Source: Verrucomicrobiaceae bacterium
Lineage (GTDB): Bacteria > Verrucomicrobiota > Verrucomicrobiia > Verrucomicrobiales > V1-33
Assembly (NCBI GenBank): GCA_027483175.1
Contig: JAIXVE010000214.1
Location: 23,893 to 87,892 of the forward strand
Direction of reading: 5' to 3'
Length of the DNA: 64,000 nt
In this document: positions 10,690 through 41,294 of the stretch, piece by piece
Position numbering within the stretch: position 1 is the stretch's first letter
How the letters are laid out: each line of letters begins with the position of its first letter
Notes under the pieces: generated by a model
Databases searched by the model: none
What the model was told of the DNA's origin: nothing
Seen by the model: the letters and a program-made list of their open reading frames with translations, nothing else
Position numbers and translations under genes: made by a program

Positions 10690-10696
10690 CAATGTG

Positions 10697-11209
10697 TCAG
10701 GAAAGAGGTTGTGCAGGCGCGTGAAACTGCCCGCGGAGGGTCTGCACCGCATGGTGCAGCAGGTAACCGACATTGCTCACCGACAGCCCGGTGGCCGCCG
10801 CAATGTCCTTGTAGCTCAGCCCGCCTTCGAACTTCAGGCGGACCAGCTCGCGTTCGCGTTCCGGCAGGCTGCCAATCAGGCCGCGCAGTCTGCCAGCGTC
10901 GTCCTTGCGGACTAGCGCAGTATCCGGCCCCGCCGATTCATCGGGGGCAGCCGCTAGTGTCAGTGTTGTATCCATGGGTATCAGGCGCGAGGTCTTGCGC
11001 CGGATGTCGATCAGACACCGGCGGCAAACCGTGAACAGCCACGGGGCCAGCGATTCCCCCTCCCCTTCCGGCGCGTCACGTATGAAGCGCAGAAAGGTCT
11101 CCTGTACCGCGTCGCGCGCCGTCTCCTGATCCGCCCCCTGATGCCGCGCATACGCCAGCAACGGGCGCTCGTAGCGTTCAAGGACAGTTTGGAATTCGGC
11201 GGCAGACAC
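10697..11209 (-). CDS. ECF-type (sigma-70 family) RNA polymerase sigma factor
   Basis: 170 aa. Region 2 (ARDAVQETFLRF...PWLFTVCRR) and region 4 HTH (LSYKDIAAATGLSVSNVGYLLHHA) are recognisable. The start codon at 11209 is GTG. Confidence 0.9.
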   Translation of the reverse strand: MSAAEFQTVLERYERPLLAYARHQGADQETARDAVQETFLRFIRDAPEGEGESLAPWLFTVCRRCLIDIRRKTSRLIPMDTTLTLAAAPDESAGPDTALVRKDDAGRLRGLIGSLPERERELVRLKFEGGLSYKDIAAATGLSVSNVGYLLHHAVQTLRGQFHAPAQPLS

Positions 11210-14710: not shown

Positions 14711-15985
14711 TCAGCGGGGTGCTGTCGGCGCAGCCCGCGGCGACGCAGCCGGCGGGAATAGCAGGTTCTCCGGGCTGCCCGGGATCGTCGGCACCAGCGG
14801 CGACGGCTGCGGCCCGGTGTCCAGCAGCGCATCCGGCGCCGTCCGGTCCGGCAACGGCAGCTCCCTCGCCATCTGCAGCAGCTCCCCGGTCGTCGCCGTC
14901 GCATCCTGCAGCTTGTCCTCGTAAATCACTTCCAGCGCACACCCGTAATACCGGCACCTCCCTAGCCGCTGCAGCTCGTCCGGTGTCATCGCCGGCTGCC
15001 AGTAATCAAACACAAAGGTCTCCCCGCCATCCGCCCAGTCCGCCGGCTCACTCTCACAACTCAACACCGGCTCCATCGCACCCGACCTCGCAATGCTCCG
15101 CCCGTTCACCGAATCAAAGAAGTGAATCGCCAGGGTCATCTTCTCCATGTCCACCGGCTGGTCCGACTTCTTCCGGATCACCGTCGTGAACCGCACCCGC
15201 TCGCCACCCGCGTCCACCACGCGTTCTTCATCCAGCGACCCTATCGTAAATTTCCCTTCCCTGTCTTCTTCCGGCTCCGCCGACGCCTCGACGCCGTCCC
15301 TCAGGCGGTCCCGCGCCAGCACAAAGAAATCCCCCGCCCCCTCCCCCAAGGCCCGCAGGCTCTCCCAGACCGGCTGTGCCTTCCGCACCAACCCCATTGT
15401 GTCCAGCGTCAGCGCCAGATGATAGAGCACTTTCGGATGATCCGGCAGCACCGCCGCCGCCGCCCGCAGATGCGCCAGCGCCCCATTCGTGTCCCCCGAT
15501 GACCGGAGGTTCAACCCTTCGTCCAAATGCGCCAGCACCGCCTCGTCAGTGATCGCCACATCCAGCGGCGCCTGCACTTTCGCCGCCGGAGCCCGCGGCC
15601 CCGTCGACACCCCCGGCAGCGACACGCCACCCTTCTCCAGCAACTCCTTCTCCTTCGCCTCCATCAGCAGCGCCATCCCCGGATCCTCACGCTCCGCCGC
15701 ATCCGGATCCACCACCACCTGCGGCCTCGGATCCGCAAACGGATCATCCTTCACCGGCACCGCCATCGCCACCACCGGCTCCGCCACCGGAATCGCCGGA
15801 ACCTCCACATCCTTCACCCCACCAACCGCCGCCACCGGCTCCCCGCCACCCACCACCGCCACCGGCATCCGATACGACACCGCCAGCGCCGCCACCTGCC
15901 CCACCGCCAGCAATCCAAGGCATACCCACACGTTCCGCAACACGCGGCTGCCGCTCGTGGCTGTTGTGCTGGACTCAGGTCTCAT
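14711..15985 (-). CDS. N-terminally membrane-anchored hypothetical protein with one TPR-like segment (424 aa)
   Basis: ATG at 15985 with TM VWVCLGLLAVGQVAALAVSY. A TPR-like stretch reads GDTNGALAHLRAAAAVLPDHPKVLYHLALTLDTMG. The start is 43 nt downstream of the blaR1-like stop on the same strand. Confidence 0.6.
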   Translation of the reverse strand: MRPESSTTATSGSRVLRNVWVCLGLLAVGQVAALAVSYRMPVAVVGGGEPVAAVGGVKDVEVPAIPVAEPVVAMAVPVKDDPFADPRPQVVVDPDAAEREDPGMALLMEAKEKELLEKGGVSLPGVSTGPRAPAAKVQAPLDVAITDEAVLAHLDEGLNLRSSGDTNGALAHLRAAAAVLPDHPKVLYHLALTLDTMGLVRKAQPVWESLRALGEGAGDFFVLARDRLRDGVEASAEPEEDREGKFTIGSLDEERVVDAGGERVRFTTVIRKKSDQPVDMEKMTLAIHFFDSVNGRSIARSGAMEPVLSCESEPADWADGGETFVFDYWQPAMTPDELQRLGRCRYYGCALEVIYEDKLQDATATTGELLQMARELPLPDRTAPDALLDTGPQPSPLVPTIPGSPENLLFPPAASPRAAPTAPR

Positions 15986-16028
15986 GATGCAAAATCGGCC
16001 CTGAGTTTAGGGATTTCCCCGATGCCTG

Positions 16029-19000
16029 TCAATCCCCTCCCACCCTTTTTCCCTCTACCCCATCCGGAATCTTCGCCAAAACCGCCTCCAGCTCCGCTCG
16101 CAAAGCCGCCCCAATCGGCGCACCCGCCAGCTCCACTCCCTTGTACCGCGTCTCCACCGGCCGCCGCGGATCGGAAAAATCATAGCGCCGCAAGGTGCAG
16201 TACTCCCCAATCCACAACTCCCTCGCCCCCTTCGTCATCGTCGCCGCCCACGTCCCCTCACCATCCGGCAGCGCAATCTTGTGCACGACATTGTCCTTCC
16301 CCTCCTCAAAACCAATCAGGCTCGCCTCATTGCTCACCCGTCCCTTCTCCAGCCGTCGGCTCACCGAGAGTCGGACCGCTCCGGATAATTGGTAAGTCCC
16401 CGGGCCACTCACCACCCGCTGACGCAACGCCGCCTCAGGAACATCAGGAAGCACACGGAACTTCGTGCGTCCGGCATAAATGAAATCAGCCTCGACCTTG
16501 CCGTGAGGACGCCTCGATAGCAGGGTCGCGAGATTCTGTAGCGCCTCCGGCGATCGGTCCGCCGCAAAGGCCTCTCCCTCGGCCGCACTCGGCGCAGTGC
16601 CGTAAAGATCACTAACCACACGGTACAGCAGCACCTCGCGCTCCTTCACGTCGGACGGCAATGGCAACTCGCGGTTTAGCCGCTCTGTGATGCAATCCAA
16701 CCACCACTCAGGCTCCGGAGCGGTTCCAGAAAATAGACAGAGCCCCGAGTGATGGAGTGTGACTTCATCCCCCGGACTGCAGTGCATCCAGGCAAGCGGG
16801 CGGCCTCCCATCCAATCATCCCGCTCCTTGTCCTGCCTGCCAATCACAATTCCTAGCCCCCCAGTGCTGTGTTCAATGAACTCACCCGGTTCGAGACGCC
16901 AGATCTGTGCCCGGCTCAAGTTGCTGCACCCCACATGATCAACCCGGACCTTGCTCCCGTCGGAAAGCGTCGCAGCAGGCGGCCACTGCTCATAACTGTC
17001 TTCGCTGAAGCCCTCAAAAACCACCGGCTCGCTGCCGGAATTGTGAATCAGGATCCGGGCCGACACCACAGTGCCCGGCCGATACTCCGCAACACCCGGC
17101 TCCAGCACATAGGCCATGCGCAGGCCGCTCGCCAGCGGTGCGCCCCATGCAACCTTCTCAAGGGACGCAGGCAACGGTGCACCGGAACGCGGTGTCCGCG
17201 CGCCAAGTTGTCGCCATGCATTCTTCAGCGGAATCTCACTAACTTCCGCGATGTCATCCATCAGCGCCATCGCATCCACCGCCTTCCAGTCGCGCAACTC
17301 CCCAAACCGCTGCACCAGCACCTTCAGCTTCTCCGCCACAACCTTGCCCGCAGCATCGTCCCCATTGGCCTGGATGAACTCCTGCACCTTGTCAGAAAGC
17401 ATTGCCATCAGCCCGCCGGGAACGTCGCCGTTTCGCCGCAAGCTGTCATTCCACATTTTGAAAAGCGCCCGCGACGTCTTGTTCCTCAGCGGCGGCCCGC
17501 CCTCACGCACCGCTCCGCGTGTCTCCCCCGTCGTCAGCTTACCCTTCCACGCGCCTTCCGGAACATCCCGCAGCTCCAGCGCCGCACGCCAGCTCTCCAG
17601 CGAATCCTTCCGGATGCCTTGAATCAAGTCCGCCGCCGCATCGGCACCACCCCGGTTCAGCATCGGTAGATACACCACCGCCCGAGGCTTCAGTGCCACA
17701 TCGGTCATCGTTGGCTCGTCATCGGTCACCGCTGACAGCAGCTTTCCCGAAGCACTCAGAAACAAGGTTCGCAGGCGCTCGCCTTTCCTGACATCCGCCA
17801 CCCGCAGCGGCGCATCCGAAACATTCTGCAGCACAAGGGTAATCCACTCCGGCTTCCCCGCACCCGGCGCCCGAATCATGATCGCCCCCCTCAACCCATC
17901 CACCGGCTCGCCCCAGTCCAATTGCGCCTCCGTGGCTTCATCCAGCGTTTCACCCCACACCATCGGCTCCGCAGAAACCCGGTTCAGCCACGCCGGATCA
18001 CGCCCTCCGCAATCAGGATGCGCACTGTAGTACTGCACATAGTGCTCCGGAAAGAGGCAGGCTCTCGTCAGCCAGAACTCATGCCAGAATTCATAACCCT
18101 CGCCATCACCACCGACGTGCTTTTCCATCAGCGGGATCGACCGCTCCCACTCATCAACATACGCTAGAACATCACCGATCCGCATTCCTGCCGCGTCTCC
18201 CTTTTCCGTCGCTGCCAGCCGCTCCAGCAGCGCATCCAGAGCCATCGTGTTTCCATTCACCCCATAATCATAGGCCTTCAGCGCCGCCTCGGTTATGGCA
18301 TGCGTCCTCAGCGTGGCATCCTCCAGCAGATGGCGGAATCCCGTGTCCTTCGCCGCTCCAGCCAGCTTCAGCAGAAAGGCAATCCGCTGCAGCACTTCAT
18401 CCCGGTCTCTCTGTTCAGGCCTCGTTCCCGCTAGCAGGGCCAGCTCCGCTCGATCAAATGGCAGCGACTGTGGATAGCTGTCCGGCGTGCCTCCAAACTC
18501 CGCCGCAAACACCTTCCGGCTGTCAAAAGCAGGCCCCACCGGCTGCGCCGCCGCCACCATCACCAGCGGTGCAGTGCTCAGCGTCCCCTTCCACGCATTC
18601 GCCGGACCATGCCCGAACGACAGGGACGCCGTCAACCCAGCCACCACCGCCCCATCCGCCAGCTTCCCGCTCGAATAACCCACCGCCCGATTCGGGTCCG
18701 CACTGCGGCTGTCCGGCCCCAACTCTCCGATCAACACAGACATCAGCGTCATCACCACCGCATGCCTCGGCGGCAGCACGAGGTCGTTAACCGCACTCAG
18801 GATGTCCACAATATTCTGTCCCACATCCTTCTCCGTCCCATCGGCAAAGACAATCTTCGGCGCCGCTCCCGCCACGGGACTCTCGCCGCGGAATGTCACC
18901 GGCTGCTCACTCACGTTCTGCACCACCACGTTCAAATCAATCACCGTCCCCGGCTTCGCATCCCCTCCCGGCGAAACCCTCACCAATGCCGCGCGCACCC

Positions 19001-22000
19001 CATTCACCGGCTCACCCCACGCCAGGCGACCCTCAACGTCACTATCAAGCAGCACCGCCTCACGCGAAACCCCCGGGACCTCCGACGGCCGCTTCGTCAG
19101 CTCCAACCCGCTGATTCTCGGCAGAAACGGTGCCGCACTCGTGTGCGGCCAGATCTCCACCTGCAACCCGCCCCCGGCCCCGCGCGACACCCTCCCGCAT
19201 GGCACCCACTTTTCAATCCCGTGCAGCATCATCACATCCAGATGCGTCGCCATCACCCCGGGCGAAACCTTCAGCGTCGCCGTGGCGAAACCCTCACCAT
19301 TCCTGATCACCCAGCTCACATCGTCACCAAAACGCAACGCCACACTGACCCCATCCTTGCTCCCGGTCCACACACCGCGGCGCGACTCCGGATCCAGTCC
19401 CGACGCCTTCGTCGCCTTCTCCTGATACCGCGCGAACTGCTCCGGATACAGCACACTCCGCTGCTCCCAGAACAATCCATACGATTCCCCCGCCGCCCCG
19501 TCCGCTCCCCTCGCAAAATGCTTCTCGTGCGCCGCCAGCGTCAGCTCCCATTCATCAATGAACCCAAACGGCACCGCCGCCTGCACGTCCCCCGCAGGCC
19601 CGTTCGCCAGCTCGTCCAGCAGAAACTGCAGCGCCTCCCGATTCCCGTTCAGCGAATAATCATACGCCGCCAGCGCCAGCGCTAGGCTGTGATACTCGTC
19701 ATCCTTCCGCTTCAACTGATCATCCTTCAGCAGCGACTGCAACTCGCCCGTCTTCTCCACCGAGGCCTGCAGAATCATGAACATCAGGCGACGCACCTCA
19801 TCGCTCTCCAGCTTGGCCTTCGCCGCCAGCTCCAGAGCCTTCTCAGGCACAAACGGATCATCAAGCTCATCGTACGCCGGGAACTTGCCCCAATCGACCA
19901 CACGCCGCGCTCCGGCCCCAGATGCCCGCTGCTGCTGCCCGGTCGCCGCAAGCTCACCGAATGCCTGCTTCATCGCCCCACGCAATGGCTCCGGAATATC
20001 ACCAATGCTCCCAGACTCAATCCGCACTTCCTTCACCGCCCCCGGATCCGTGAACTCATAACGTCTCACCAGACCGTTCTCAATAACCCACAACTCTCCC
20101 ACTCCTGGAATCCAGCCCATCCCGTAAACCCGCGCTCCCTCCGGCAGCGTGATAACGTAAGGCTTGTGCACCGATTCCTTCTTCGGATCCGGCCCGAAAA
20201 AGAGGATCTCCGCCGAGTTCACCCGCCGATCACCTTCAGTCACCTGACGCACCTGCAGATGCACACCGTCACCTAGCACATAACGTCCCGGCGCACTCGC
20301 CACCCGCGGCCGCTTCGGCGCTTCCGGATCCGCAGCAACCACGCGGAACTTCGTCTCGCCCGTCGGCAGCTTGCCAGACCATGGCTTCACACTGCCATCA
20401 CGCTCGGCTCGCTGCTTCACCAACCGTCCCGCAAGTTTCTCCAGCGCATTCGATGCATCGTCAGCCACAAACGCCGCGATCTCTTCCGCCGTCGGAAGCA
20501 CGCCGAGAATCTCAGGCGTCGTGCGACGGATGATCAACTCTCGATCCACCCTCCCTTCGGGCATCGGCGCAAACTGCAGAATCCGCCCGCGAACGTATTG
20601 ATCAATCAACTGCCCCGGGTCCTTCGGATCACCAGGCTTCGTCCAGCCTCCCTCAGCCGTGTCCACGCTGTGCGTCAGTATCACCGCATCCCCGTCCTTG
20701 GCCTCAATAATCGCTCCAACCGCTCCAGTGCTGTGCTCGTCCTTGTATTCGCCCGCACCGATCGCAATGCCATGCCCGCTCACCTCACAGTATTCGCCCG
20801 GCTCGAGGCGAAACTCCGACGTTGGCGTAATACCAGTAAACCACGTCGTCTTCACCGTAATCTCCGCGCCCTTCTCATCGCGCGCCGTGTGCCCATCGTC
20901 CTGATGCCATGTCGCCGTCTCAAAAACCATCGGCACCTTCCCCGCGTTGTGGAAAAGCACTCGCGCCTTCAGCACCGATCCTAGCGGGTATTGCTCCGCA
21001 CGCGGCTCCAGCAGCCACGCCGCCCTCAACCCATTCGCCGCAGGCGCACCCCACGCCGCACCCTCCAATTCCTTCGGCAGCGGCTCGCCCTGCCGAACCA
21101 CGCGCTCCAAAGAAGACTGCATCGCGTCGTCCGCCCAACTCACCGGTGCCGTCGCAATCGCCGCGATCTCATCCAGCAGCGCGACTGCCTCCGCCTGCGT
21201 CCAGTCCCGCGAAGCATCCAATCTCGGACGCAACGCCGCGAGCTTCGCAGAAACCTCGGCGTCGGTGATTTGCTTCACCGCCTCATCCGTCGTCCGCGCC
21301 AATCCTCCAATCAGCCCACCAGGTATCTTACCATCCGTCCGCGCACCCGCCTGCCACTTCCTGAAAAGCGACTTCGCCGACTCGTGCTGCGGCTTCACCG
21401 GCGCGGCACCCGCTGGCGCTTCCGGAGTTGGCTCCACCGCCGCCGTCGCAACCGTCAACGGCAACGACTTGGCAGTGACTTTCCCCGTCCATTCAGCGCC
21501 CGCGTCCTTCGCCACCGGTGTCTCCTGATAATTCCGGTACTCCAAATGAATCCCATACGACCCCGCGGGCACCGCTAGCCGCGGGTTGTGCTCCTTGCCT
21601 TCCTTGTGCGCCGCGCGACTCGCTTCCTCCGGCGTAGCATGCGCTTCCAGATCGAACGCCGCCACTTTCACAGCGGTCCCGACCGCCAGCTCATAATGAC
21701 GGTAGCCGGTCACCCCCGGACTGAATGGATAAATGGCGCGGTATACCTTTCCCGCCGCATCGCTCAGGGAAATCTGCACCACGGGATTATGCACGTCAGG
21801 CGCGCTCAGCTTAACCGGCGCACCACTGTCATTCCGCAGATAGACGGCCACGGGCACCGACTTCCCGATCTCAAGGCTCGCCCCCCCGGACAGGCCTGAG
21901 ATACCAAGGCTCAGCCCATCCGGCCCCGCCGTCCAGACGACCCCCACATCCGCGCTCACCGTTTCTCCCGGCTGATACCTTTTTTCCACCAGCAACGGCC

Positions 22001-25000
22001 GCGTGCGCTCCCATTCAAGTCGGGTGGAATGGAAAAGCCCGTGCATCCATGCGTAACCCATGCGCGCCTCTGGCGTAAGCTCCTTCGGTCCATTCTCATC
22101 CTCGATCGACGCACCAATCATCGCGTGAAACACCGCGTCATAGTCAAACGGCGACTGCGGAGCCTTCAAGTCAGTGAGCAGACGAAAAGCACAGTCACGA
22201 ATGCTGCCCCGCCCATCGGCAATCATGTGACGCAGCATCTCCAGACCTTCAGTGTTCGGCATCTCCGCCAGCCTCGCCCGAAGCAACTCCGCCAGGCCAA
22301 GCTCGATCACCGGATTACCGTCCGCCGGACCGTACGCCCTGCCACCGCTCTCGATGAAGAAGCCGCCACCTTTGTGCGGAACCTTCAGGACCGCGCCTTG
22401 TGACAGGGCCATCTCAAAAAACCCACCATCAATCACGGCCGCACCTACCTCGTTAGGCAGCCTGCGGAAATCAAAGGGCTCCATCGTTGCCGGAGGCAAC
22501 TGCAGCACCGCACGCACCCCCGCCGGAATGTCCCCCCGGCCTCCTGCCGCCTGCTCCAGCGTCCACTTCCCGTTCTCCGTCAGGTTCTCCTTCACGATCA
22601 GATGGGTGATCCCGGACGCATCCTTGACCCACAGTCCCTTCCCTCCCACCGCCCATGCCGCCACGTACTCGCCATCGGCCGCAGGAATCTTCCAATCGCG
22701 GCTCCCATCCTCCCAAGGCCCACCTGTCTGCGACATGTTGGGATACCCTTTGTAATGACGCAGCCTGATGACGCCTTTGTCGAAGGCGATCATGTACTGG
22801 CTTCCGAACGCCTCGCTATCTCCCGGATTCGCCGTTTTCACCTGCTCATCCGCCAGCCGCAGCGGCACCGCAGCAGACGTCAGCACACCGGTCCATTCGC
22901 CCAGCCCCGGCGCTCCGCGGGGATCGCCGAAGTGAAAGTTCATCGGGCGGCCCAGAAACTGCCCGATGCCGTGGGTAAGTTGCAGCGTGTACTCACCCGG
23001 CAGCACGGTAAACCCGTGAGCCAACATGTCCATGCCTCCCGGACTGGAGCCGTCTTTCTCCGCCATGGTCGTGCGCATCGGGCCGGACCCCAGCTCAATG
23101 TAGTGGCCAGCCGCGAGTCTCACGCGATCGAAGAACCCCTGCCACGGATAGCCCCTCTGGTGAGGGAACTTCTTTCCATCGGCCTTGCGCACGAGTTCGC
23201 CGCCCACTCCTTCATTGAAAACCTGAGTCGTGCTGAAGGCCATCGTTTTGCCACTGTCGTTGCGGATATACTGTTTCACTGGCAGCGTCTGCCCCACCGG
23301 ATACGCAACACCCGGCTCCAATCCGCCGATCCCCAGCCGCAACCCGGCTTCGTTCGCCTCGCCCCACACAATCTTGTCAGCAGCGGCATCCAGCGGCTTG
23401 CCCGATTTGAACTCGCTGTCAGGCACCACCACGCGACTGGATTCCCAACGCGCCCGGTCGTCACACGACGCATACCATGCCGTCACGGCCGCCGCCGCCT
23501 CAGTCAGCGCCGCGGGCGAATCAATCGCCGGCACCTTGATCCCCGCAGGCACCTGGAAGACATCGGCAGAGAACTCAAGCTTTTCGAAATGCACAAAGAA
23601 CACGCGCCCCCGGCTGAGATCAAAGCGGGAGACGGGATAGCCGCCGGCTTTGAGATCGAGGAAGCCGGGCGCGTCTTCCGGCCATGTGTAGCGAATCGTA
23701 ATCGTCTTGTCCGATGTCGCCACATCCATCGTCAGACCTCCCTCACGGCTGGTCGAATCCGGCAACACCGTGAGCGCCCGGCCTGTTAGTATAACAATCG
23801 GCTCATGCCCATCCTCCCGCAACACCAGAGCCGCGGACTTGCCGTCCGTCACAGGCTGGACTGCCGCCGCCGACTTCGGCTCAGGTGCCTTCCCTTGTCG
23901 CGCCCGCTTTACCTCATCCATCGCCATGTCCCCAATCTTCACCAGGTCCTCCTTGGTCCGCATCACCATCGAACGCCCTGTCTGGAAAGGCTCGCCAGCA
24001 TCACCCAGGACGAAGACGCGCCCGGTGCTCAACGCGTATGCTTTGCCGTCGAGATACAGCGCCCCCGGCTCGTCGGACGTGTGCTTCACCGCGATGACGC
24101 GCTTATCCACGTTCTTACCCGCCGCCGCCGTCAGCTTCGAGTCCACTAGGTGAATGTTCCCCTCAATGCTCCACGTTCCGCTCATCGGCGAAAAACTCTC
24201 ACCGATCCCCGTCGAAATGAAGCCCTCATGGACAAGGACAAACCTCACATCCTTCTCCGTCTGGTAGGCCACTGCCGCATACTTGTCGTTCCACAGATGC
24301 GTCCGATCCGGCGGCCCCGCCTCGCCTGTCTCAGAAGCAGGAGGCGCAGCCCTTCCTAGAATCTCTGCCAGCGACTCGGCAGCGACCCCAGCAATGTCCA
24401 ACTGCCGCTTCACTTCGTCACGGAACTCGACAGGCACAACGGTCGCGGGCAAGTCGGTGACTTTAGCAGGATCATTGTAATCTATCTTCCGTGCGCCGCC
24501 TTTATGAAGTAGATAGAAGAATCCCTCCCCCGGTCGGCAGACGATGGCCCATGTACCCCAGCCATCGGGGATCTCGATTTTGTGAGGTTTCGGCGGAAAC
24601 CTTCCAGTCGCCACAGCAGCTTCGAACAGGATCTGCGCATCATTTGCCCGCCGATCTCCAACGGGCCGCCCAACAATCTTCAGCGTCACCGCGCCGCGCG
24701 CCACCGTCCCTCCACTCAACGGATACTCGCCAGGTCCGAGCACAACCCGCGGGGTTTTGTCAGCAGTGCCCGGATCAGCCGGAAGCACGCGGAACTTCAC
24801 CGGCACAGTGGGCAGCGAGCCTGAAAACTCGACCCGATCCACTCTCGCGGCTAGGCGCTGCACAAGGGCATCGAACGCGCCATCACTCTGGTCAGCGGCA
24901 AAGGCGGCAATCTCGTCAGCCGTAGGCGTTGTCGCGAACAGATCGCGCACAGCCCGGTCGAGGAGGTGAGTGCGCTTGGCACCACTGGAAGGCAGCGGCA

Positions 25001-27398
25001 GTTCGCGGCTCAGCCGTTCCTTGATATGCGCCTGCCACCAACCCGGACCGATGAGATGCGGCGCATCCTCCCTCATACCGACACCGCTGCCATCCAACGG
25101 AATCGGTCCATGCGTCAGGATAAGTTCAGCGCCGTCCTTCCCAAGCACATTGGAACCAACACGTGGCCCCGCCCACGGTCCGCGCCCCGCATCTTTACCA
25201 AGTCCAACACCTGGCGCGTTGATCTCAACATACTCGCCAGGCGCAAGGCAAACCGGAACAAGCCTCGCAATGGTCGTCCAATCGATCCCGGAAACCTCGA
25301 TTTCCCCGCCAGCCGCATCGCGTGCAGAAACCCCTCCCTGATGCCATGTCGGCACTCGCGCCATCACGGGAATCGTCCCCGCATTCTGCACCAGCAATCG
25401 CGCCTTCAGCGCCGTTCCCATGCGATGCTCCGCAGCCCCCGGCTCCAGCACCCACGCCGCACGCAAACCGTTCGGCTGCGTTTCGCCCCAGGCCACGCCG
25501 GCGAAGCGCTCCGGCCGCACCTCACCCTGACGGATCGCCGCCGCAGTCATCTTCTCCGCCGCCGTCTGCAGCGGCGAATCCTGCACCGCCGCCAATTCAT
25601 CCAGCAGCGCGATGGCGTCAGCGGCTTTCCAGTCACGGGTCGCGTCCAGCCTCGGGAGGATCTCGTTGAGCTTCGGTACCGTCTCCCATGTCGGATTGTA
25701 GCCGATGAACACCTTCACCGCCGCCGCCAGTTCCCCAATCAGCGCTCCGGGAATGTCGCCGCTGAGACGGGCGTACGATTGCCAGAGTTTATAGAGGGCG
25801 CGTGCGTCCTTGTGCTTTGGCATGGCCATGTCCGTGTTTTCTAACGGAAGCTTGGCGGCGATGAGCTGCGCCAGCTTATCCGCGTTTTCCCGGCTCGTGA
25901 CCAGCGGAGTCGGCAGGTCGAGTTGACGGACGGTAGCGTCGTCGCTCAGCAGAAACACGCGTCCCTTCGCGAGGTCGTATTCCTTTTGCCCGAAGTTACC
26001 AACCGGTGGCGCGGCCTTATCGGATTCCCGTCCTTCGGAGGGACCAGTCGTGAGGCTCAGTTTGCCCGGAGCGGTGTGCACGCGGTGATAGCTGAGCACC
26101 ACGCCCGGCCGCTTCAACGTGATCGTGCCGGAATTCGTCCAAGTCCGCGCCTTCGCGTTAGAGCCCCCATTGCTCATTGAGTCGAAGTCGCCCCGATAAG
26201 CGATTACAAACGACGATTCCTTTCCGTCGTGAACGCAGACGGCGGAGAAATCATTGCCTCCGATGTGCGCCCCGTGCGGAGGATCCCATTTCTCATCCGC
26301 CGCACGGAGCATCGCGAGCGGAACGGCAATGATCGCACCCAGCATCAGCGCCGCCGCCGTGAGCGCGCGGGTCACACTGCGCCTGTTGAGCTTGTCGCTG
26401 AGGACGGCATGCAGGCGCCCTTCAATCGATGACTTGCGGGCCATCGCGAGTCCACAGGCCTGTGTCCATCGCGCCGGAGAAAGCTGCGTCGCGATCTGCA
26501 GCAGGTGCTCGGCATAGGCCGATGGCTTGACGCCCCGGGCCAGCACAAGGTCGTCGCAGGCACGCTCGCGCTCGACGTGCAGTCGCCACGCCGCCAGCCA
26601 GACAAGGGGATTGAACCAATGCAGCGCGCAGGCCAGCTGGGTGAGGAATTGCGTTAGCGGATCCCGTCGCCGCAGGTGCGCGAGTTCGTGCAGCAGCACC
26701 GAACGAAGCTGCGTCGCGTTCCATTGTTCCGCTTCCGCTGGCAGCAGGAGCTGCGGCCGGAAAATCCCCCACACCACCGGAATGGTCCGGCCCTTGTCCA
26801 TCAGCAGCCGCACCGGCTGACGAACGCCACACTCGACTCGCGCCGCCTCAAGCGCGGCCACGAGCGCACCATTAGCGGGTTCACAGCGCCGGGTGCTGCG
26901 GCGCAGCAGCACATGGGCCGCCGTAAGCCTCAGCACCAGCACCACACAACCGGCTGCCCAGATTGGCAGCAGCCAACCGTGGCGCGGGAACGGCTTCGGC
27001 GATTCGGACGCCACCAACACCGGGACACTCGGCCGCACCACGGCAGCCGCCTCGGGCACCGGCACCTGAACCGCAGCAGGAAACACCGTCGGTCGTTCCG
27101 TCGGCAATGGCGGCAGAGCAGGCTTCTCGGTCGCTCGGGGCATCGCAACATCAGCCACCACCGCCTCCCGCACCGTCCACCGCGGCAGCACCCGCCAGCC
27201 CGGCAGCACCACGCTCAGCACCGGAACAATCAGCAACGCCACCATCGCCGCCAGCCAGACCATGTGCCGCGCAGACGCTGACGCCCGTCGCATCACTAAC
27301 ACACACCCGCCAGCCAGCACCAGCAGCGCCGCACCCTTGAGCGACGCATCCGCCAGCAACGGAACCGCAGCCGCCGCAAACATCAGGATCCGGTTCAT
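16029..27398 (-). CDS. Giant BlaR1/MecR1-family M56 peptidase-type membrane sensor (3,789 aa from ATG 27398)
   Basis: One uninterrupted 11.4-kb ORF. The preferred start is MNRILMF at 27398, one nt after the blaI stop (TGAgATG). The N-terminal 4-TM M56 domain has HELAH (HExxH) and ERERACDD. The last TM is ALTAAALMLGAIIAVPLAML. Everything after it (about 3,400 aa) is predicted extracytoplasmic and built of internal repeats. I could not recognise a penicillin-binding or transpeptidase-like sensor domain. Confidence 0.85.
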   Translation of the reverse strand: MNRILMFAAAAVPLLADASLKGAALLVLAGGCVLVMRRASASARHMVWLAAMVALLIVPVLSVVLPGWRVLPRWTVREAVVADVAMPRATEKPALPPLPTERPTVFPAAVQVPVPEAAAVVRPSVPVLVASESPKPFPRHGWLLPIWAAGCVVLVLRLTAAHVLLRRSTRRCEPANGALVAALEAARVECGVRQPVRLLMDKGRTIPVVWGIFRPQLLLPAEAEQWNATQLRSVLLHELAHLRRRDPLTQFLTQLACALHWFNPLVWLAAWRLHVERERACDDLVLARGVKPSAYAEHLLQIATQLSPARWTQACGLAMARKSSIEGRLHAVLSDKLNRRSVTRALTAAALMLGAIIAVPLAMLRAADEKWDPPHGAHIGGNDFSAVCVHDGKESSFVIAYRGDFDSMSNGGSNAKARTWTNSGTITLKRPGVVLSYHRVHTAPGKLSLTTGPSEGRESDKAAPPVGNFGQKEYDLAKGRVFLLSDDATVRQLDLPTPLVTSRENADKLAQLIAAKLPLENTDMAMPKHKDARALYKLWQSYARLSGDIPGALIGELAAAVKVFIGYNPTWETVPKLNEILPRLDATRDWKAADAIALLDELAAVQDSPLQTAAEKMTAAAIRQGEVRPERFAGVAWGETQPNGLRAAWVLEPGAAEHRMGTALKARLLVQNAGTIPVMARVPTWHQGGVSARDAAGGEIEVSGIDWTTIARLVPVCLAPGEYVEINAPGVGLGKDAGRGPWAGPRVGSNVLGKDGAELILTHGPIPLDGSGVGMREDAPHLIGPGWWQAHIKERLSRELPLPSSGAKRTHLLDRAVRDLFATTPTADEIAAFAADQSDGAFDALVQRLAARVDRVEFSGSLPTVPVKFRVLPADPGTADKTPRVVLGPGEYPLSGGTVARGAVTLKIVGRPVGDRRANDAQILFEAAVATGRFPPKPHKIEIPDGWGTWAIVCRPGEGFFYLLHKGGARKIDYNDPAKVTDLPATVVPVEFRDEVKRQLDIAGVAAESLAEILGRAAPPASETGEAGPPDRTHLWNDKYAAVAYQTEKDVRFVLVHEGFISTGIGESFSPMSGTWSIEGNIHLVDSKLTAAAGKNVDKRVIAVKHTSDEPGALYLDGKAYALSTGRVFVLGDAGEPFQTGRSMVMRTKEDLVKIGDMAMDEVKRARQGKAPEPKSAAAVQPVTDGKSAALVLREDGHEPIVILTGRALTVLPDSTSREGGLTMDVATSDKTITIRYTWPEDAPGFLDLKAGGYPVSRFDLSRGRVFFVHFEKLEFSADVFQVPAGIKVPAIDSPAALTEAAAAVTAWYASCDDRARWESSRVVVPDSEFKSGKPLDAAADKIVWGEANEAGLRLGIGGLEPGVAYPVGQTLPVKQYIRNDSGKTMAFSTTQVFNEGVGGELVRKADGKKFPHQRGYPWQGFFDRVRLAAGHYIELGSGPMRTTMAEKDGSSPGGMDMLAHGFTVLPGEYTLQLTHGIGQFLGRPMNFHFGDPRGAPGLGEWTGVLTSAAVPLRLADEQVKTANPGDSEAFGSQYMIAFDKGVIRLRHYKGYPNMSQTGGPWEDGSRDWKIPAADGEYVAAWAVGGKGLWVKDASGITHLIVKENLTENGKWTLEQAAGGRGDIPAGVRAVLQLPPATMEPFDFRRLPNEVGAAVIDGGFFEMALSQGAVLKVPHKGGGFFIESGGRAYGPADGNPVIELGLAELLRARLAEMPNTEGLEMLRHMIADGRGSIRDCAFRLLTDLKAPQSPFDYDAVFHAMIGASIEDENGPKELTPEARMGYAWMHGLFHSTRLEWERTRPLLVEKRYQPGETVSADVGVVWTAGPDGLSLGISGLSGGASLEIGKSVPVAVYLRNDSGAPVKLSAPDVHNPVVQISLSDAAGKVYRAIYPFSPGVTGYRHYELAVGTAVKVAAFDLEAHATPEEASRAAHKEGKEHNPRLAVPAGSYGIHLEYRNYQETPVAKDAGAEWTGKVTAKSLPLTVATAAVEPTPEAPAGAAPVKPQHESAKSLFRKWQAGARTDGKIPGGLIGGLARTTDEAVKQITDAEVSAKLAALRPRLDASRDWTQAEAVALLDEIAAIATAPVSWADDAMQSSLERVVRQGEPLPKELEGAAWGAPAANGLRAAWLLEPRAEQYPLGSVLKARVLFHNAGKVPMVFETATWHQDDGHTARDEKGAEITVKTTWFTGITPTSEFRLEPGEYCEVSGHGIAIGAGEYKDEHSTGAVGAIIEAKDGDAVILTHSVDTAEGGWTKPGDPKDPGQLIDQYVRGRILQFAPMPEGRVDRELIIRRTTPEILGVLPTAEEIAAFVADDASNALEKLAGRLVKQRAERDGSVKPWSGKLPTGETKFRVVAADPEAPKRPRVASAPGRYVLGDGVHLQVRQVTEGDRRVNSAEILFFGPDPKKESVHKPYVITLPEGARVYGMGWIPGVGELWVIENGLVRRYEFTDPGAVKEVRIESGSIGDIPEPLRGAMKQAFGELAATGQQQRASGAGARRVVDWGKFPAYDELDDPFVPEKALELAAKAKLESDEVRRLMFMILQASVEKTGELQSLLKDDQLKRKDDEYHSLALALAAYDYSLNGNREALQFLLDELANGPAGDVQAAVPFGFIDEWELTLAAHEKHFARGADGAAGESYGLFWEQRSVLYPEQFARYQEKATKASGLDPESRRGVWTGSKDGVSVALRFGDDVSWVIRNGEGFATATLKVSPGVMATHLDVMMLHGIEKWVPCGRVSRGAGGGLQVEIWPHTSAAPFLPRISGLELTKRPSEVPGVSREAVLLDSDVEGRLAWGEPVNGVRAALVRVSPGGDAKPGTVIDLNVVVQNVSEQPVTFRGESPVAGAAPKIVFADGTEKDVGQNIVDILSAVNDLVLPPRHAVVMTLMSVLIGELGPDSRSADPNRAVGYSSGKLADGAVVAGLTASLSFGHGPANAWKGTLSTAPLVMVAAAQPVGPAFDSRKVFAAEFGGTPDSYPQSLPFDRAELALLAGTRPEQRDRDEVLQRIAFLLKLAGAAKDTGFRHLLEDATLRTHAITEAALKAYDYGVNGNTMALDALLERLAATEKGDAAGMRIGDVLAYVDEWERSIPLMEKHVGGDGEGYEFWHEFWLTRACLFPEHYVQYYSAHPDCGGRDPAWLNRVSAEPMVWGETLDEATEAQLDWGEPVDGLRGAIMIRAPGAGKPEWITLVLQNVSDAPLRVADVRKGERLRTLFLSASGKLLSAVTDDEPTMTDVALKPRAVVYLPMLNRGGADAAADLIQGIRKDSLESWRAALELRDVPEGAWKGKLTTGETRGAVREGGPPLRNKTSRALFKMWNDSLRRNGDVPGGLMAMLSDKVQEFIQANGDDAAGKVVAEKLKVLVQRFGELRDWKAVDAMALMDDIAEVSEIPLKNAWRQLGARTPRSGAPLPASLEKVAWGAPLASGLRMAYVLEPGVAEYRPGTVVSARILIHNSGSEPVVFEGFSEDSYEQWPPAATLSDGSKVRVDHVGCSNLSRAQIWRLEPGEFIEHSTGGLGIVIGRQDKERDDWMGGRPLAWMHCSPGDEVTLHHSGLCLFSGTAPEPEWWLDCITERLNRELPLPSDVKEREVLLYRVVSDLYGTAPSAAEGEAFAADRSPEALQNLATLLSRRPHGKVEADFIYAGRTKFRVLPDVPEAALRQRVVSGPGTYQLSGAVRLSVSRRLEKGRVSNEASLIGFEEGKDNVVHKIALPDGEGTWAATMTKGARELWIGEYCTLRRYDFSDPRRPVETRYKGVELAGAPIGAALRAELEAVLAKIPDGVEGKRVGGD
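16032..17490 (-). repeat. Protein-level repeat module A, copy 3, forming the C-terminus (approximate start)
   Basis: Landmarks are SRALFKMWNDSLRRNGDVPGGLMA...RFGELRDWKAVDAMALMDDIAEV, then AWGAPLASGLRMAYVLEPG about 330 nt in, then AAEGEAFAADRS...KFRVLPDVPE...LRRYDFSDP. Confidence 0.7.
19900..21395 (-). repeat. Protein-level repeat module A, copy 2 (approximate borders)
   Basis: Landmarks are AKSLFRKWQAGARTDGKIPGGLIG...RLDASRDWTQAEAVALLDEIAAI, then AWGAPAANGLRAAWLLEPR about 330 nt in, then AEEIAAFVADDA...KFRVVAADPE...VRRYEFTDP. It is colinear with copies 1 and 3. Confidence 0.7.
24330..25830 (-). repeat. Protein-level repeat module A, copy 1 (about 500 aa) inside the giant BlaR1-like gene (approximate borders)
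   Basis: Begins ARALYKLWQSYARLSGDIPGALIG...RLDATRDWKAADAIALLDELAAV. Its AWGETQPNGLRAAWVLEPG block lies about 330 nt after the module start. Later landmarks are ADEIAAFAADQS...KFRVLPADPG... and the end ...RKIDYNDP.... Confidence 0.7.
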
Positions 27399-27399
27399 C

Positions 27400-27783
27400 T
27401 CAGCGGCCCTCCTTCTTCGCTTGTTCAATCAGCGCCACCAACCGGTCCCTTTCCTCCTCCGTCACTCCATCCTTCCGCGACAGCAGATGCGACGAAAGCG
27501 CCTCCTCCAGCGATCCGCCAAAAAACGTCTCCAGCACCTTTTCAAACGCCGTCCGCCCAGCCCGCGACCGCGACTCCTTCGGCGCATACACCACTTCCCT
27601 CCCCTGCTCCCGCCGCCGCAAATGCCCCTTCTCCTCCAGGATGTGCAGCATCCTCCGCACCGCCATCGGCGTCGGTGGATCCGGCAACGCCTCCACCACC
27701 TGATTCACCGTCGCCTCCCCCCGCGCATACAGCGCATCCATGATCTGTCGTTCGCGGCGCGTCAGTTGGGCACTGTCAGTCAT
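27400..27783 (-). CDS. blaI: BlaI/MecI/CopY-family winged-helix transcriptional repressor
   Basis: 127 aa. The sequence LTRRERQIMDALYARGEATVNQVVEAL...AVRRMLHILEEKGHLRR is typical of the Penicillinase_R fold. The stop is 1 nt before the M56 gene start. Confidence 0.9.
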   Translation of the reverse strand: MTDSAQLTRRERQIMDALYARGEATVNQVVEALPDPPTPMAVRRMLHILEEKGHLRRREQGREVVYAPKESRSRAGRTAFEKVLETFFGGSLEEALSSHLLSRKDGVTEEERDRLVALIEQAKKEGR

Positions 27784-27796
27784 GGTATTCGTGTCG

Positions 27797-27824
27797 GTTA
27801 AAGATTTAGCGTTGCTTCTTTAAC
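27797..27824. promoter_or_regulatory. Candidate BlaI operator: GTTAAAGA-N12-TCTTTAAC palindrome 14 nt upstream of the blaI start
   Basis: Read directly: arms at 27797-27804 and 27817-27824, in an AT-rich patch between the rpoC terminator and blaI. A second small palindrome, CGTTA-N6-TAACG, lies at 27853-27868. Confidence 0.35.
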
Positions 27825-27879
27825 GGACAAATCGCCATCCGCAAGTTCGATTCGTTACATTTTTAACGCCGCCCCCGCC

Positions 27880-27915
27880 AAGCAGAAGGCCGCGCCCCGT
27901 TTCCGGAGCGCGGCC
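27880..27915 (-). terminator. Stem-loop terminator after rpoC
   Basis: The arms GGCCGCGCCCC (27888-27898) and GGAGCGCGGCC (27905-27915) form an 11-bp stem with one G-U pair. On the minus strand it is followed by ttctgctt, and it lies 29 nt past the rpoC stop. Confidence 0.6.
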
Positions 27916-27943: not shown

Positions 27944-32083
<4,140 letters not shown>

Positions 32084-32166
32084 GAATGGGAAAAAGTAAA
32101 GTTAGTGAAGTGAAAAGGTGAGGAGTTGCGGGCCGGTGCAACGCACACCGGCCCGCGGAATAACCG

Positions 32167-35100
32167 TCAGGCGCTCAGCATGCCAAGCCCCTGCCCGTCC
32201 GGACCGGCCTTGGAATTCCCGACTTTGACGTCGAGGCCCAGCGACTGCATTTCCTTGATGAGGACGTTGAATGATTCCGGCGTGCCGGCCTCGAGCGTGT
32301 TGTCCCCCTTGACGATCGCTTCATAGATCCTCGTACGGCCCTGGACGTCGTCCGATTTGACCGTGAGAAGTTCCTGCAGCGTGTAGGCAGCACCGTAGGC
32401 CTCAAGGGCCCAGACTTCCATTTCACCGAAGCGCTGGCCACCATACTGCGCCTTACCACCCAGCGGCTGCTGCGTGACGAGACTGTACGGACCAACCGCC
32501 CGGGCGTGGATCTTGTCAGCAACAAGGTGACCGAGCTTCATCATGTAGATGACCCCTACAACGACTTCCTGGTGGAATGGATCACCGGTACGTCCGTCGA
32601 ACAGACGGGACTTGCCGTTGAGGCCGATCCAGGAGTGCTCCGTGGTGTCACGGGCTTCCTTGAGATACCCCATGATCTTTTCCTCGGGAATCCCGTCGAA
32701 CACCGGTGTCGCAATCGTCATCCCAAGCGCCCGAGCCGCCACCCCAAGGTGCGTCTCAAGAACCTGACCAACGTTCATCCGGGAAGGCACGCCGAGCGGA
32801 TTCAGAACGATGTCCACCGGACGTCCGTCTTCGAGGAACGGCATGTCCTCTTCCGGAACGATCTTGGCGACAACCCCCTTGTTCCCGTGGCGGCCAGCCA
32901 TCTTGTCACCCACGGAGAGTTTCCGCTTCGACGCAATGTAGACCTTCACCTGCTTCACGATGCCGCTGTCCGGCTCGTCACCGGTTTCGACCTTATCAAG
33001 GGCCGCTTCCCGCTCTTCTTCAAGTTCCGCGAACTTCTGTTCAAGCCCCGCAATGATGTCGAAGATCTTGTTACGGATCGGGCTCGCGTCCATGTCGATA
33101 TGGTCGTGAGCCTCTGCCACCTTGGCGAGAAGCGCCTTGGTGATCTTCTTGTTCGCCGGAATCAGGATCTCGCCGGTCTGAGCGTTGACGACGTCCAGCG
33201 GGCTCTTCTCGTTGAGGAGAATGTCCGCAAGGCGGTCCGTGAGTTGATTGACCAGCTCAAGGTGCTTGGCTTTGAACTCCTCTTCAATCTGCTTGAGCTG
33301 CTTCTTGCTGTCAGCAGCAGAGAGCTTCTCGCGAGCATTCTGATTCCGTGAGGAAACGCGGACATCCATGACGATCCCCGTGCAACCCGAAGGAACGCGC
33401 AGCGACGTATCCTTAACGTCAGCAGCCTTCTCACCGAAGATGGCGCGGAGCAGCCGTTCTTCAGGCGCCAGTTCGGTCTCCGACTTCGGCGTGATCTTGC
33501 CGACGAGAATGTCGCCAGGCTTCACTTCTGCACCGATGCGGACCACCCCGTCCTGACCAAGGTTCTTGAGCGCCTCTTCACCGACGTTCGGAATGTCACG
33601 GGTGATTTCCTCGGGGCCCAGCTTGGTGTCACGGGCACTGACTTCGAATTCCTCAATGTGGATCGACGTGTAGATGTCCTCCTTCACCACCCTCTGGGAA
33701 ATGGTGATGGCGTCCTCGAAGTTATAGCCGTTCCATGGCATGAACGCCACGAGCACGTTCCGGCCAAGGGCGAGTTCGCCGCCCTGCGTACAGGGACCGT
33801 CAGCGAGCACGTCTCCGGGCTTAACCTTCTCACCCTTGCGGATGATCGGCCGCTGATTGATGCAGGTCCCGGCGTTGGAACGCATGAACTTCCGCAGCGG
33901 CATCACCCAGATGCCTTTGTCAGGGTTGTGCTTCACGCAGAACGGATCCGCGAGGAATTCCGCCTCCGTGCAGGGCAGCTTACCATCCTTGGTCACAATG
34001 ATGACCTCAGCACTGGCTGCAGCGACGACTCCCTTACAATCCTTGTCGGCCACGAGGACCGCTTTGGAATCCCGCGCCGCCTTGCCTTCCATCCCGGTAC
34101 CCACAATCGGAGCCTCCGGAACCAGCAAAGGCACACCCTGGCGCTGCATGTTGGAACCCATCAGCGCCCGGTTGGCATCGTCATGCTCAAGGAACGGAAT
34201 CAGACCGGCCGCAATCGACACGAGCTGCTTCGGACTCACGTCCATGTACGTCGCCTCGGTCGGGTCAACTTCGAGGAAGTCGCCGCGGAAACGAACCGTG
34301 ATCCGCTTGTTCACAAAGTGGCCGTCATCCAGCGTCGGATTGTTGGCCTGCGCAATCATGTGGGCCTCTTCCTGGTCCGCCGTGAGATACTCGATCTTGT
34401 CGTGCACCACACCATTCACGATCTTGCGGTAAGGCGTTTCGATGAAGCCGAACTCGTTGATCCGGGCAAACGTCGACATCGAGTTGATCAGACCGATGTT
34501 CGGACCTTCCGGCGTCTCAATCGGACAGATCCGGCCGTAGTGGGACTGGTGAACGTCGCGGACTTCAAAGCCGGCGCGGTCGCGGTTCAGACCACCAGGC
34601 CCAAGCGCAGAAAGACGACGCTTGTGGGTCAGTTCCGCCAGCGGATTCGTCTGGTCCATGAACTGACTGAGCTGGCTGCGGCCGAAGAAGTCCCGCACCA
34701 CCGCCGAGAGCGCCTTCGGATTGATCAGCTTGGCCGGCGTCATGCCCTCCATGTTGACATCGAAGAGCGTCATGCGCTCCTTCACGAGACGTTCCGTCCG
34801 GGAAAGGCCCACCCGGCACTGGTTGGCGAGCAATTCGCCCACAGCCCGAACACGGCGGCTGCCCAAGTGGTCAATGTCATCCAGAATCCCCTCACCGCTG
34901 CGCAGCTTGAGCAGGTAGCGGATCGCGGCAATGAAGTCCTGCGCCACGAGAATCCGCGTGTCATCAGACTGCTTCAGACCGAGCTTCTGGTTGATCTTGT
35001 ATCGGCCGACGCGGGTGAGGTCATACTTCTTCGGGTCGAAGAAGAGACGCTTCAGCAGGGCGCGGGCGTTCGGCACCGTGGGTGGATCCCCAGGGCGGAG

Positions 35101-36003
35101 GCGACGGTAGATGTCCTTGAGGGCCTCATCTTCATCGCGCGCTGGGTCCTTCTTGAGGGACTTCAGGAGAAGGTCATCCGCGGAAACCGAGATAACCTTG
35201 ACCGTCTTGTGCCCGAGATCCAGCAACTGACGCACCATCCCAGGAGTCAGCGGCTCGAACGACTTCGCAATGATCGTCTCACCGTCAACGACGTCCGCGA
35301 TCAGCACGCGGTTGCTGAGTTCAGCCTCATCCAGAGACATCTTCAGCTTGAGATCCTCAATCTGATAGAACTCACGGATGATCTGCTCGTCCGTCCCGTA
35401 GCCGATCGCACGGAGGAATGTGGTCGCAAGGAACTTGCGGCGGCGGCGGCGGCGGTCAAGATACACGTACAGAAGGTCGTTCGTGTCGAACTGCACTTCC
35501 AGCCACGAACCACGGTCCGGAATGATCCGGAATCCAAACAATTCCTTCCCGTTCAGGTGAAGGTTCTTCTCAAAACAGACACCCGGCGAACGGTGCAACT
35601 GGGAAACCACCACCCGCTCAGCGCCGTTGATAACGAACGTACCACGCTCCGTCATCAGGGGCAATTCGCCCATGTAGACTCGTTCTTCCTTGGTCCCCGT
35701 CTCGTCCTTCAAAGTGAAGGTCACATAGAGCGGCGCCGAAAACGTCTCGCCGTCCCGCTGCGCCTGGTGGGCAGTGAGCTTCGGTTCGCCCACCTCATAG
35801 TGCGCAAAGTCCAGGACAGTCTTGTTGTCGTAACTCTCAATCGGGAAGACTTCCTTGAAGACACTCTGCAGACCAACGACGATGCGCCGAGACGCCGCCA
35901 GTTCCTTCTGCAGAAACTCTTTGTAGCTGTTGAGCTGAACCTCAATGAGGTTGGGAGGATCAATGACTTCCGTAAGCTTGCCGAAATGGAGGCGGTCTGA
36001 CAT
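32167..36003 (-). CDS. rpoB: DNA-directed RNA polymerase subunit beta
   Basis: 1,278 aa with conserved blocks such as [25 protein letters not shown] and [13 protein letters not shown]. Confidence 0.99.
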
Positions 36004-36189
36004 GGGCGGGGTGCGGTGGAAAGTGTGGGATGGGATCGGAAAGGCTGGCCTGAATCAGGACAACTCACGGCGGGAACAGGGCCCCTTCTTCAATCACGAA
36101 GGGTATGGTCAATCGGGCGGCCGGAACTTCCGGACCTATGGAGGTGGCTGGCTCCCGTCTCTCGCTCCCCTACACCTCAAAAAGGCGTC

Positions 36190-36247
36190 AGGAAACAAAA
36201 AACGGAAAACGCCCGGCCCGCGCTTCCCGGAAACCCGGGAAGCGCGG
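36190..36247 (-). terminator. Strong stem-loop + T-tract between rplL and rpoB (attenuator-type terminator)
   Basis: A perfect 13-bp stem CCGCGCTTCCCGG-(4 nt)-CCGGGAAGCGCGG lies at 36218-36247. On the minus strand it is followed by gccgggcGTTTTccGTTTTTTg. It starts 41 nt past the rplL stop. Confidence 0.75.
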
Positions 36248-36287
36248 AAACGGGTTGAATAACTGGTGTGTGTTTCGGGTCAAATCA

Positions 36288-36656: not shown

Positions 36657-36796
36657 ATGTTTGGGTCAGTATCACCGTTTTCCGGAGCCCCGGAGTGATT
36701 GAGTGCGGCGGCCGCTGCACCGGTGAGGAACTGGGTTGGTTTTTCTGTCTGTTAGTTCTGGGTTTGGAAGTCCGGGCGAAAACGTCCGGAAATGGT

Positions 36797-37324: not shown

Positions 37325-37360
37325 GATCCGTTGAAAATAGGGTGAAGTTGGCGGCTGAGA

Positions 37361-41219: not shown

Positions 41220-41294
<75 letters not shown>

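Follow-up and report, generated by a model that had tools for sequence, protein, structure and literature searches.

The window analysed here is a 64,000-nt stretch of a contig from a Verrucomicrobiaceae bacterium (GenBank JAIXVE010000214.1), in which one uninterrupted open reading frame (ORF) on the minus strand (16029–27428) encodes an M56 (BlaR1-type) zinc protease with a probably extracytoplasmic array of repeated modules, referred to below as the giant protein. The ORF counts 3,799 codons from its first TTG at 27428; the start codon is likely the ATG at 27398 because a homologue (P0003) opens with the residues MNRF at the equivalent position. Module positions are given in the numbering of the TTG-start ORF, and Pfam was queried with the ATG-start protein, which is offset by 10 residues. 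Directly upstream, and in the same orientation, lies a gene for a BlaI/MecI-type repressor whose stop codon is separated by 1 nt from the giant gene's ATG, and this is in turn adjoined by rpoC, which has a terminator hairpin at 27888–27915. The coordinates of the two genes, the modules and the operator-like palindromes are collected in Table 1.

Table 1. Giant M56 sensor-protease gene, its encoded modules, and the adjoining repressor gene and operator-like palindromes (nucleotide positions in the window).
Feature	Position (nt)	Strand	Details
Giant M56 sensor-protease gene	16029–27398	−	3,789 aa from ATG at 27398
M56 zinc-metalloprotease membrane domain	26295–27389	−	aa 14–378; four transmembrane segments, HELAH 247, ERACD 288
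GRVF copy 1	25929–26282	−	aa 383–500, directly after the fourth transmembrane segment; independent profile E 7e-45
Module A copy 1 (A1 subtype)	24348–25823	−	aa 536–1027
A1 helix bundle	25509–25823
A1 WG sandwich	25059–25505
A1 PSCyt2-like helices	24813–25043
A1 beta domain	24348–24803
GRVF copy 2	23988–24314	−	aa 1039–1147; E 8e-5 to copy 1; profile 3e-39; z = 11.5
GRVF copy 3	23574–23879	−	aa 1184–1285; divergent, marginal support
Free-standing WG beta-sandwich	22866–23381	−	aa 1350–1521; closing strand EWTGVLT
Partial module A C-terminal beta domain	22479–22736	−	aa 1565–1650; E 3e-8 and 8e-5, weak
Free-standing WG beta-sandwich	21462–21947	−	aa 1828–1989
Module A copy 2 (A2 subtype)	19905–21395	−	aa 2012–2508
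Helical module copy 1	19368–19802	−	aa 2543–2687; conserved AYDYxxNGN, DEWE, EKH, DG
X, small eight-stranded beta domain	19059–19367	−	aa 2688–2790; follows HEL1-type helical modules only
Free-standing WG beta-sandwich	18564–19034	−	aa 2799–2955; closing strand AWKGTLS
Helical module copy 2	17955–18401	−	aa 3010–3158
Free-standing WG beta-sandwich	17520–17930	−	aa 3167–3303; closing strand AWKGKLT
Module A copy 3 (A3 subtype)	16041–17492	−	aa 3313–3796; protein end
BlaI/MecI-type repressor gene	27400–27783	−	127 aa; Pfam Penicillinase_R (PF03965) E 2.5e-24
Operator-like palindrome 1	27853–27868		CGTTAAAAATGTAACG; perfect CGTTA-N6-TAACG
Operator-like palindrome 2	27810–27825		one mismatch; 43 nt from palindrome 1; overlaps inverted repeat

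Across the whole giant protein, Pfam recognised only two families, Peptidase_M56 and three short matches to PSCyt2/DUF1549. The Peptidase_M56 match (PF05569; E 7e-38, 130.8 bits against a cutoff of 31) covers residues 26–331 of the ATG-start protein, equivalent to ORF residues 36–341, and contains the gluzincin zinc site (HExxH...ExxxD) as HELAH at 247 and ERACD at 288. The 41-residue spacing between these motifs is the same as that between the zinc-site residues H201 and E242 of Staphylococcus aureus BlaR1 (PMC9834060). Hydropathy peaks were observed at residues ~27–48, 52–83, 151–177, and 351–379, with none past residue 380, leaving ~3,400 residues after the last membrane span. The protease motifs thus lie between the third and fourth transmembrane (TM) segments and the array after TM4, as expected of the M56 layout; by analogy with S. 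aureus BlaR1, the active site would face the cytoplasm, and the array probably lies outside the cytoplasm. Together with the adjoining BlaI gene, these features bear out a preliminary description of the sequence that had called the protein BlaR1-like. We did note that the loop between TM2 and TM3 (aa 84–150; 26970–27180, minus strand) comprises ~65 proline-rich, low-complexity residues; its position corresponds to the extracellular loop through which S. aureus BlaR1 signals (PMC9834060).

The resemblance to BlaR1 is confined to the protease part, which was all that was matched by the NCBIfam model blaR1_generic (score 86.9 bits, cutoff 400). Pfam gave no match to a transpeptidase or beta-lactamase anywhere in the giant protein. 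Given that the domain defining a beta-lactam sensor (a C-terminal penicillin-binding domain with an SxxK motif and a class D beta-lactamase fold) is missing, the giant protein is not a beta-lactam sensor.

The repressor gene is a recurrent partner, present in 43 related loci. In about 40 related loci, the stretch immediately preceding blaI contains pairs of CG(T/C)TA-N6-TA(A/G)CG dyads spaced 43–44 nt apart, an arrangement that occurs almost nowhere else in 900 kb, and we predict from this conservation that the paired dyads are operators. A 13-nt inverted repeat at 27792–27829 was also considered as the operator and was dropped, since the comparison of loci showed that the CGTTA-N6-TAACG dyad overlapping it is the conserved element.

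Using profile hidden Markov models (HMMs) iterated on related loci, we resolved the ectodomain into the order M56-GRVF-[A1]-GRVF-GRVF-WG-partial A_C-WG-[A2]-HEL-X-WG-HEL-WG-[A3], where HEL denotes the helical module and A_C the C-terminal domain of module A. The repeat families are nested: WG cores occur both as a part of module A and as domains standing on their own. All seven WG cores align, three of them lying within the module A copies and the rest being free-standing, the latter closing with an (E/A)W(K/T)Gx(L/V)(T/S) strand. The short GRVF motif proved to be the last strand of a domain of ~110 residues.

The preliminary description, made by eye from the translation, had proposed at least four repeat families arranged colinearly in a mosaic, and this was supported by self-comparison, alignments, and both the module HMMs and independent HMMs. 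Plain self-BLAST gave the identity hit only, and the self-comparison was made by BLASTP of 200-aa fragments against the masked rest of the protein. Significant internal similarity was found where the repeats had been placed: the three module A copies are colinear at aa 537–993, 2013–2479, and 3315–3771 (33–45% identity, E values down to 2e-43), corresponding to ~25823–24348, 21395–19905, and 17492–16041, in agreement with the three modules of ~490–500 residues originally described. Further colinear pairs were 383–496/1039–1143, 1290–1405/1766–1881, 2541–2680/3008–3145, and 2794–2952/3162–3300. In a MAFFT alignment, the other A copies share 36–37% identity with copy 1 (58% mean column identity), with the same order throughout. 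Regular-expression searches placed the WG motif at nt 25490, 23366, 21935, 21053, 19019, 17915, and 17147, the GRVF motif at 25979, 24038, and 23624, and AYDY.xNGN at 19667 and 18275, and found three instances each of KFRV and R(R/K)(Y/I)(E/D)(F/Y)xDP. All motifs cited fell within ~30 nt of where they had been reported, with one correction, namely that the WG block begins ~340 nt after the module start and not 330 nt.

Independent HMMs, built from other genomes only with the window and its two close relatives L001 and L002 (described below) excluded, recovered the four subdomains of all three A copies (E 2e-21 to 9e-55), all seven WG cores (E 9e-15 to 6e-54), and both helical modules (E 4e-54 and 7e-31). 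The counts of at least seven WG cores and two helical modules thus hold. Of the three GRVF copies claimed, the first two are firm; the third (aa 1184–1285) was missed by the independent GRVF profile and is marginal, showing weak colinear alignment to copy 1 (z = 4.7, 1/500 shuffles) and copy 2 (z = 3.4, 5/500).

Modelling of module A copy 1 by AlphaFold2 (14-row alignment) returned a mean predicted local distance difference test (pLDDT) score of 80.6 and a predicted template modelling (pTM) score of 0.72. The predicted chain begins with a bundle of five helices, continues through a beta-sandwich that is the WG core and a PSCyt2-like segment of four helices, and ends in a second beta domain followed by two helices. 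The pTM value suggests that module A is one compact unit, which fits the invariable order of its four parts. A second model spanning HEL1, X, and WG5 drew on a 7-row alignment, the homologue search having yielded few rows (three proteins with the helical region and four with the GRVF profile), and is reliable for the helical module and partly for X, with WG5 at a pLDDT below 50. The helical module is predicted to be all-helical (pLDDT about 65–90) and carries invariant polar residues in YDY..N.N, DEW, KH, and DG. The X domain gave weak lipocalin-like Foldseek matches that were not significant.

Each module A copy matches positions 2–67 of Pfam PSCyt2 once, in its helical middle. This falls short of the full-length domain (209 positions), and no PSCyt1 or PSD1 match was found in the giant protein; nor did Pfam detect an anti-sigma domain such as zf-HC2, the hallmark by which an extracytoplasmic function (ECF) anti-sigma factor might be recognised. 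Ten individual modules searched against Pfam at E up to 10 gave no match, and module A compared with viral models by Foldseek gave nothing below E 1e-3. Apart from the short PSCyt2-like piece, the ectodomain modules are absent from Pfam and NCBIfam. In the literature searched, neither these modules nor M56 systems in bacteria of the Planctomycetes–Verrucomicrobia–Chlamydiae (PVC) group were found described, and a 2025 review of the Planctomycetota mentions neither.

Module A has a wide distribution and a narrow context. An exhaustive profile search recovered 294 clusters at 50% identity (E up to 1e-30). Among the 142 new cluster representatives listed, 96 carry M56, 45 are fragments too short to include it, and one has another long N-terminus; module A thus occurs almost only behind M56. 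Complete A modules number one in 64 of the 96 M56 carriers, two in 12, three in 3, and none in 17. With no carrier exceeding three, the giant protein stands at the top of the range. A genome scan identified 68 loci in metagenome-assembled genomes (MAGs) of Verrucomicrobiota and Planctomycetota, among which the module orders are highly variable. The GRVF, module A, free WG, helical, and small beta barrel families are specific to these two phyla. Some of the loci bear implausible labels (Akkermansia muciniphila, Chitinophaga, and Hyphomicrobiaceae).

The three A copies of the giant protein represent three different, widespread subtypes. Modules elsewhere are 55–90% identical to A1, 47–87% identical to A2, or 38–47% identical to A3, and only ~35% identical to the other two. 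In 37 proteins with multiple A modules, identity within a protein ranged from 26 to 45% and never exceeded 45%, whereas 96% of modules matched one in another protein at more than 50% identity (median best match 73%). Given this low identity within and high identity between proteins, the copies are old, and to judge from these values, the giant protein was assembled from existing subtypes by module shuffling and not by duplication in place. The earlier view of well-diverged, old duplications is borne out by the low protein identity among copies and the lack of long DNA repeats, with the refinement that the duplications long predate the giant gene.

Recent tandem duplication within the giant gene would be the simplest account of three colinear ~490-aa copies and several smaller-module copies in one ORF. 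We consider it very improbable, as the A copies are 33–37% identical to one another and closer to modules of the same subtype in other genomes, in no member of the family does the identity between two A modules exceed 45%, and similarity at the DNA level is confined to short patches (67–86%). Chimeric joining of paralogous genes during assembly might also produce such a mosaic, and it is true that the relatives are all MAGs, some of which differ in module content. The reading frame is, however, uninterrupted over 11.4 kb and contains no exact repeated 20-mer, leaving no exact repeat of at least 20 nt to mislead an assembler. Moreover, L001, a 3,121-aa protein from an independent Verrucomicrobiaceae MAG, is colinear with the giant protein over residues 1–2959 at 90% identity and lacks HEL2 and A3, and P0165, an independent metagenome protein with 94% identity, spans the WG5-HEL2-WG6-A3 junctions missing in L001. 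Together these argue against chimeric assembly, which we regard as exceedingly improbable, as the preliminary description had also held.

The closest relatives differ by whole modules, answering a suggestion that copy number be compared among related genomes. Besides L001, the 2,573-aa protein of locus L002 (8858–16576) shares the same rpoB-rpoC-blaI-giant-TPR-FGE neighbourhood and lacks residues 385–616 and 1651–1998. The A2-HEL-X-WG block of L002 is only 67% identical to the window, with flanks at 89–93%; this block, along with the two whole-module deletions, looks like cassette replacement by recombination. The family is thus one of ancient subtypes with rapid gain and loss of whole modules. 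Between MAGs labelled Planctomycetota and Verrucomicrobiota (loci L005–L025 and others), A1-type modules were observed to be 66–74% identical, and the BlaI proteins of those loci appeared similarly well conserved by eye. This likeness across phyla suggests either cassette transfer between phyla or binning or label errors.

Free-standing WG domains were surveyed in metagenomes with a five-sequence alignment, the first WG alignment being too diverse. Most occurrences were in M56 proteins, with others beside DUF1800, HEAT repeats, or cytochrome c domains. In addition, one reading frame at locus L086 (4621–6930) joins regions 2 and 4 of an ECF sigma factor through a single TM segment to a WG domain on the extracytoplasmic side. 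This fused sigma-sensor bears out, with at least one example, the earlier suggestion that ECF-type transducers also contain the WG core.

Several known systems can be compared with this locus. As in BlaR1/MecR1 of S. aureus and Bacillus licheniformis, the giant protein is an M56 gluzincin with HExxH...ExxxD at the same spacing, four TM segments, and a sensor part after TM4, and as in BlaI/MecI pairs, there is an adjacent winged-helix Penicillinase_R repressor with two palindromic operators (here predicted) at the promoter. Unlike BlaR1/MecR1, it lacks the penicillin-binding sensor domain; its ectodomain reaches ~3,400 aa, against ~250 aa there, the predicted operators have another sequence (CGTTA-N6-TAACG), and no beta-lactamase or penicillin-binding protein gene is linked. 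In the BlaI/BlaR pair of Mycobacterium tuberculosis, BlaR is likewise without a sensor domain. PvmSR of Pseudomonas aeruginosa is an atypical BlaIR pair with no beta-lactam role (bioRxiv 10.64898/2026.08.03.742534). The locus resembles such atypical pairs in joining a BlaI-type repressor to an M56 protein whose input is not a beta-lactam, and their existence indicates that the switch has been re-used for other inputs; unlike the giant protein, they are short and contain none of the module A, WG, GRVF, or helical domains, the comparison of homology being limited to M56. PSCyt1-PSCyt2-PSD1 (DUF1549/DUF1553) proteins share with module A the resemblance of its helical middle to the start of PSCyt2, which extends over the first third of PSCyt2 only, and the PSCyt1 haem-binding domain and PSD1 are absent from the giant protein. 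Finally, the free WG domain on the ECF sigma-TM fusion of L086 is reminiscent of the membrane-tethered ECF sigma/anti-sigma transducers of PVC bacteria; the giant protein differs in having no sigma or anti-sigma domain and a BlaI repressor, not a sigma factor, as its partner.

We consider it probable, on balance, that the giant gene encodes the sensor-protease half of a BlaI/BlaR1-type (MecI/MecR1-type) proteolytic switch in which the array of modules has replaced the beta-lactam sensor. A ligand, probably macromolecular or envelope-associated, or a stress, would act on the array, and the signal would pass the membrane to the M56 domain, which would cleave the BlaI-like repressor. The repressor would then leave the two CGTTA-N6-TAACG operators straddling the promoter of the blaI-giant operon, and the operon, with any unlinked genes carrying the operator, would be derepressed. 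What the data establish is how the domains are arranged, that the protease has its catalytic motifs, that the two genes are paired, that the operator motif is conserved, that module A is linked almost exclusively to M56, and that its subtypes are ancient, with modules gained and lost rapidly. We infer the topology, the binding of a ligand, the cleavage of the repressor, and the output.

A number of results weigh against this proposal. The domain after TM4 is not fixed in the family, being GRVF, WG, or module A, and there is therefore no obvious conserved coupling element. The array yielded neither a ligand nor an enzymatic site nor a known binding fold: in Foldseek searches against PDB, no match to the module A or helical/X models fell below E 1e-3, the resemblances being to generic beta-sandwiches or lipocalin-like folds, and the module A profile found nothing among PDB sequences. 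The BlaI repressor had no match among PDB sequences, hence its cleavage site could not be aligned to solved BlaI/MecI. A periplasmic chain of 3,400 residues is also unusually large for a receptor, no operator-like sites were found in the 64-kb window beyond those at the giant operon's own promoter, and no conserved gene follows the M56 gene among 32 loci.

The last three points would also suit the main alternative, in which the ectodomain serves chiefly as an envelope component, be it a structural or adhesive scaffold or a binding "sponge", anchored by M56, with a circuit that only autoregulates its amount and a protein that is itself the output. Its beads-on-a-string domain content and the gain and loss of whole modules between close relatives, as in surface proteins, would fit as well, and a 2025 review (PMC12673574) notes a presumed role of PVC giant genes in signalling or in the structure of the cell surface. 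Nevertheless, the M56 catalytic motifs are intact, the strict linkage of module A to M56 together with the conserved repressor and operators argues that the ectodomain feeds the protease, and WG is also found on an ECF sigma-type transducer; we hold a scaffold to be possible but unlikely. As for the proteolytic switch itself, a more elaborate version is that the module A subtypes, free WG, and helical module form a combinatorial receptor toolkit of PVC bacteria, in which each subtype would have its own extracytoplasmic cue, one M56 domain would integrate several cues, and strains would change inputs by gaining, losing, or swapping modules. This extension is speculative and, in our view, quite improbable; if true, the absence of two similar A modules per protein would reflect non-redundant specificities.

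Elsewhere in the window, the gene immediately downstream of the giant gene encodes a TPR protein (14711–15985). A sigma-70-like match (TTGACA-17-TAAACT, 10/12) at 16004–16032 on the minus strand lies over the stop codon of the giant gene and the gap that follows, and the TPR gene may have its own promoter. A complete PSCyt1-PSCyt2-PSD1 protein (50916–53996, minus strand; 1,026 aa) is also encoded, the PSCyt2 N-terminus of which was matched by the profile of the module A helical middle (A_mid; E 1.5e-16) and, on this profile match, is homologous to it. A second very large gene on the plus strand (43175–49537; 2,120 aa) carries LTD, F5/8 type C, Fn3-associated, CotH, and Laminin_G_3 domains unrelated to the M56 modules, and a gene at 8239–10773 (minus strand) encodes a vWA/YfbK_C protein with a weak N-terminal match to zf-HC2 (anti-sigma-like).

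The window also displays an extreme asymmetry of base composition between the strands. Plus-strand GC skew is −0.15 to −0.43 over 1–28000 and 42000–64000, in contrast with 28000–42000. Third codon positions of minus-strand genes contain 48–68% G and 14–22% C, while those of the plus-strand gene at 43175–49537 contain 66% C and 14% G; these opposite values indicate that the bias follows the DNA strand and not the coding strand. The rpoB and rpoC genes are exempt, with about equal G and C at third positions.

The value of these findings is at present descriptive. The module boundaries, subtype assignments, and operator motif make the system testable, and they would allow proper annotation of several thousand residues per protein that now carry just the label "M56 family metallopeptidase". 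BlaI/BlaR1 is the textbook case of signalling by a single proteolytic step, and nearly all that is known of it concerns the sensing of beta-lactams. Here and in about 300 related sequence clusters, the BlaI/BlaR1 switch, with its catalytic motifs intact and with repressor and paired operators, is wired to very large modular ectodomains in Verrucomicrobiota and Planctomycetota.

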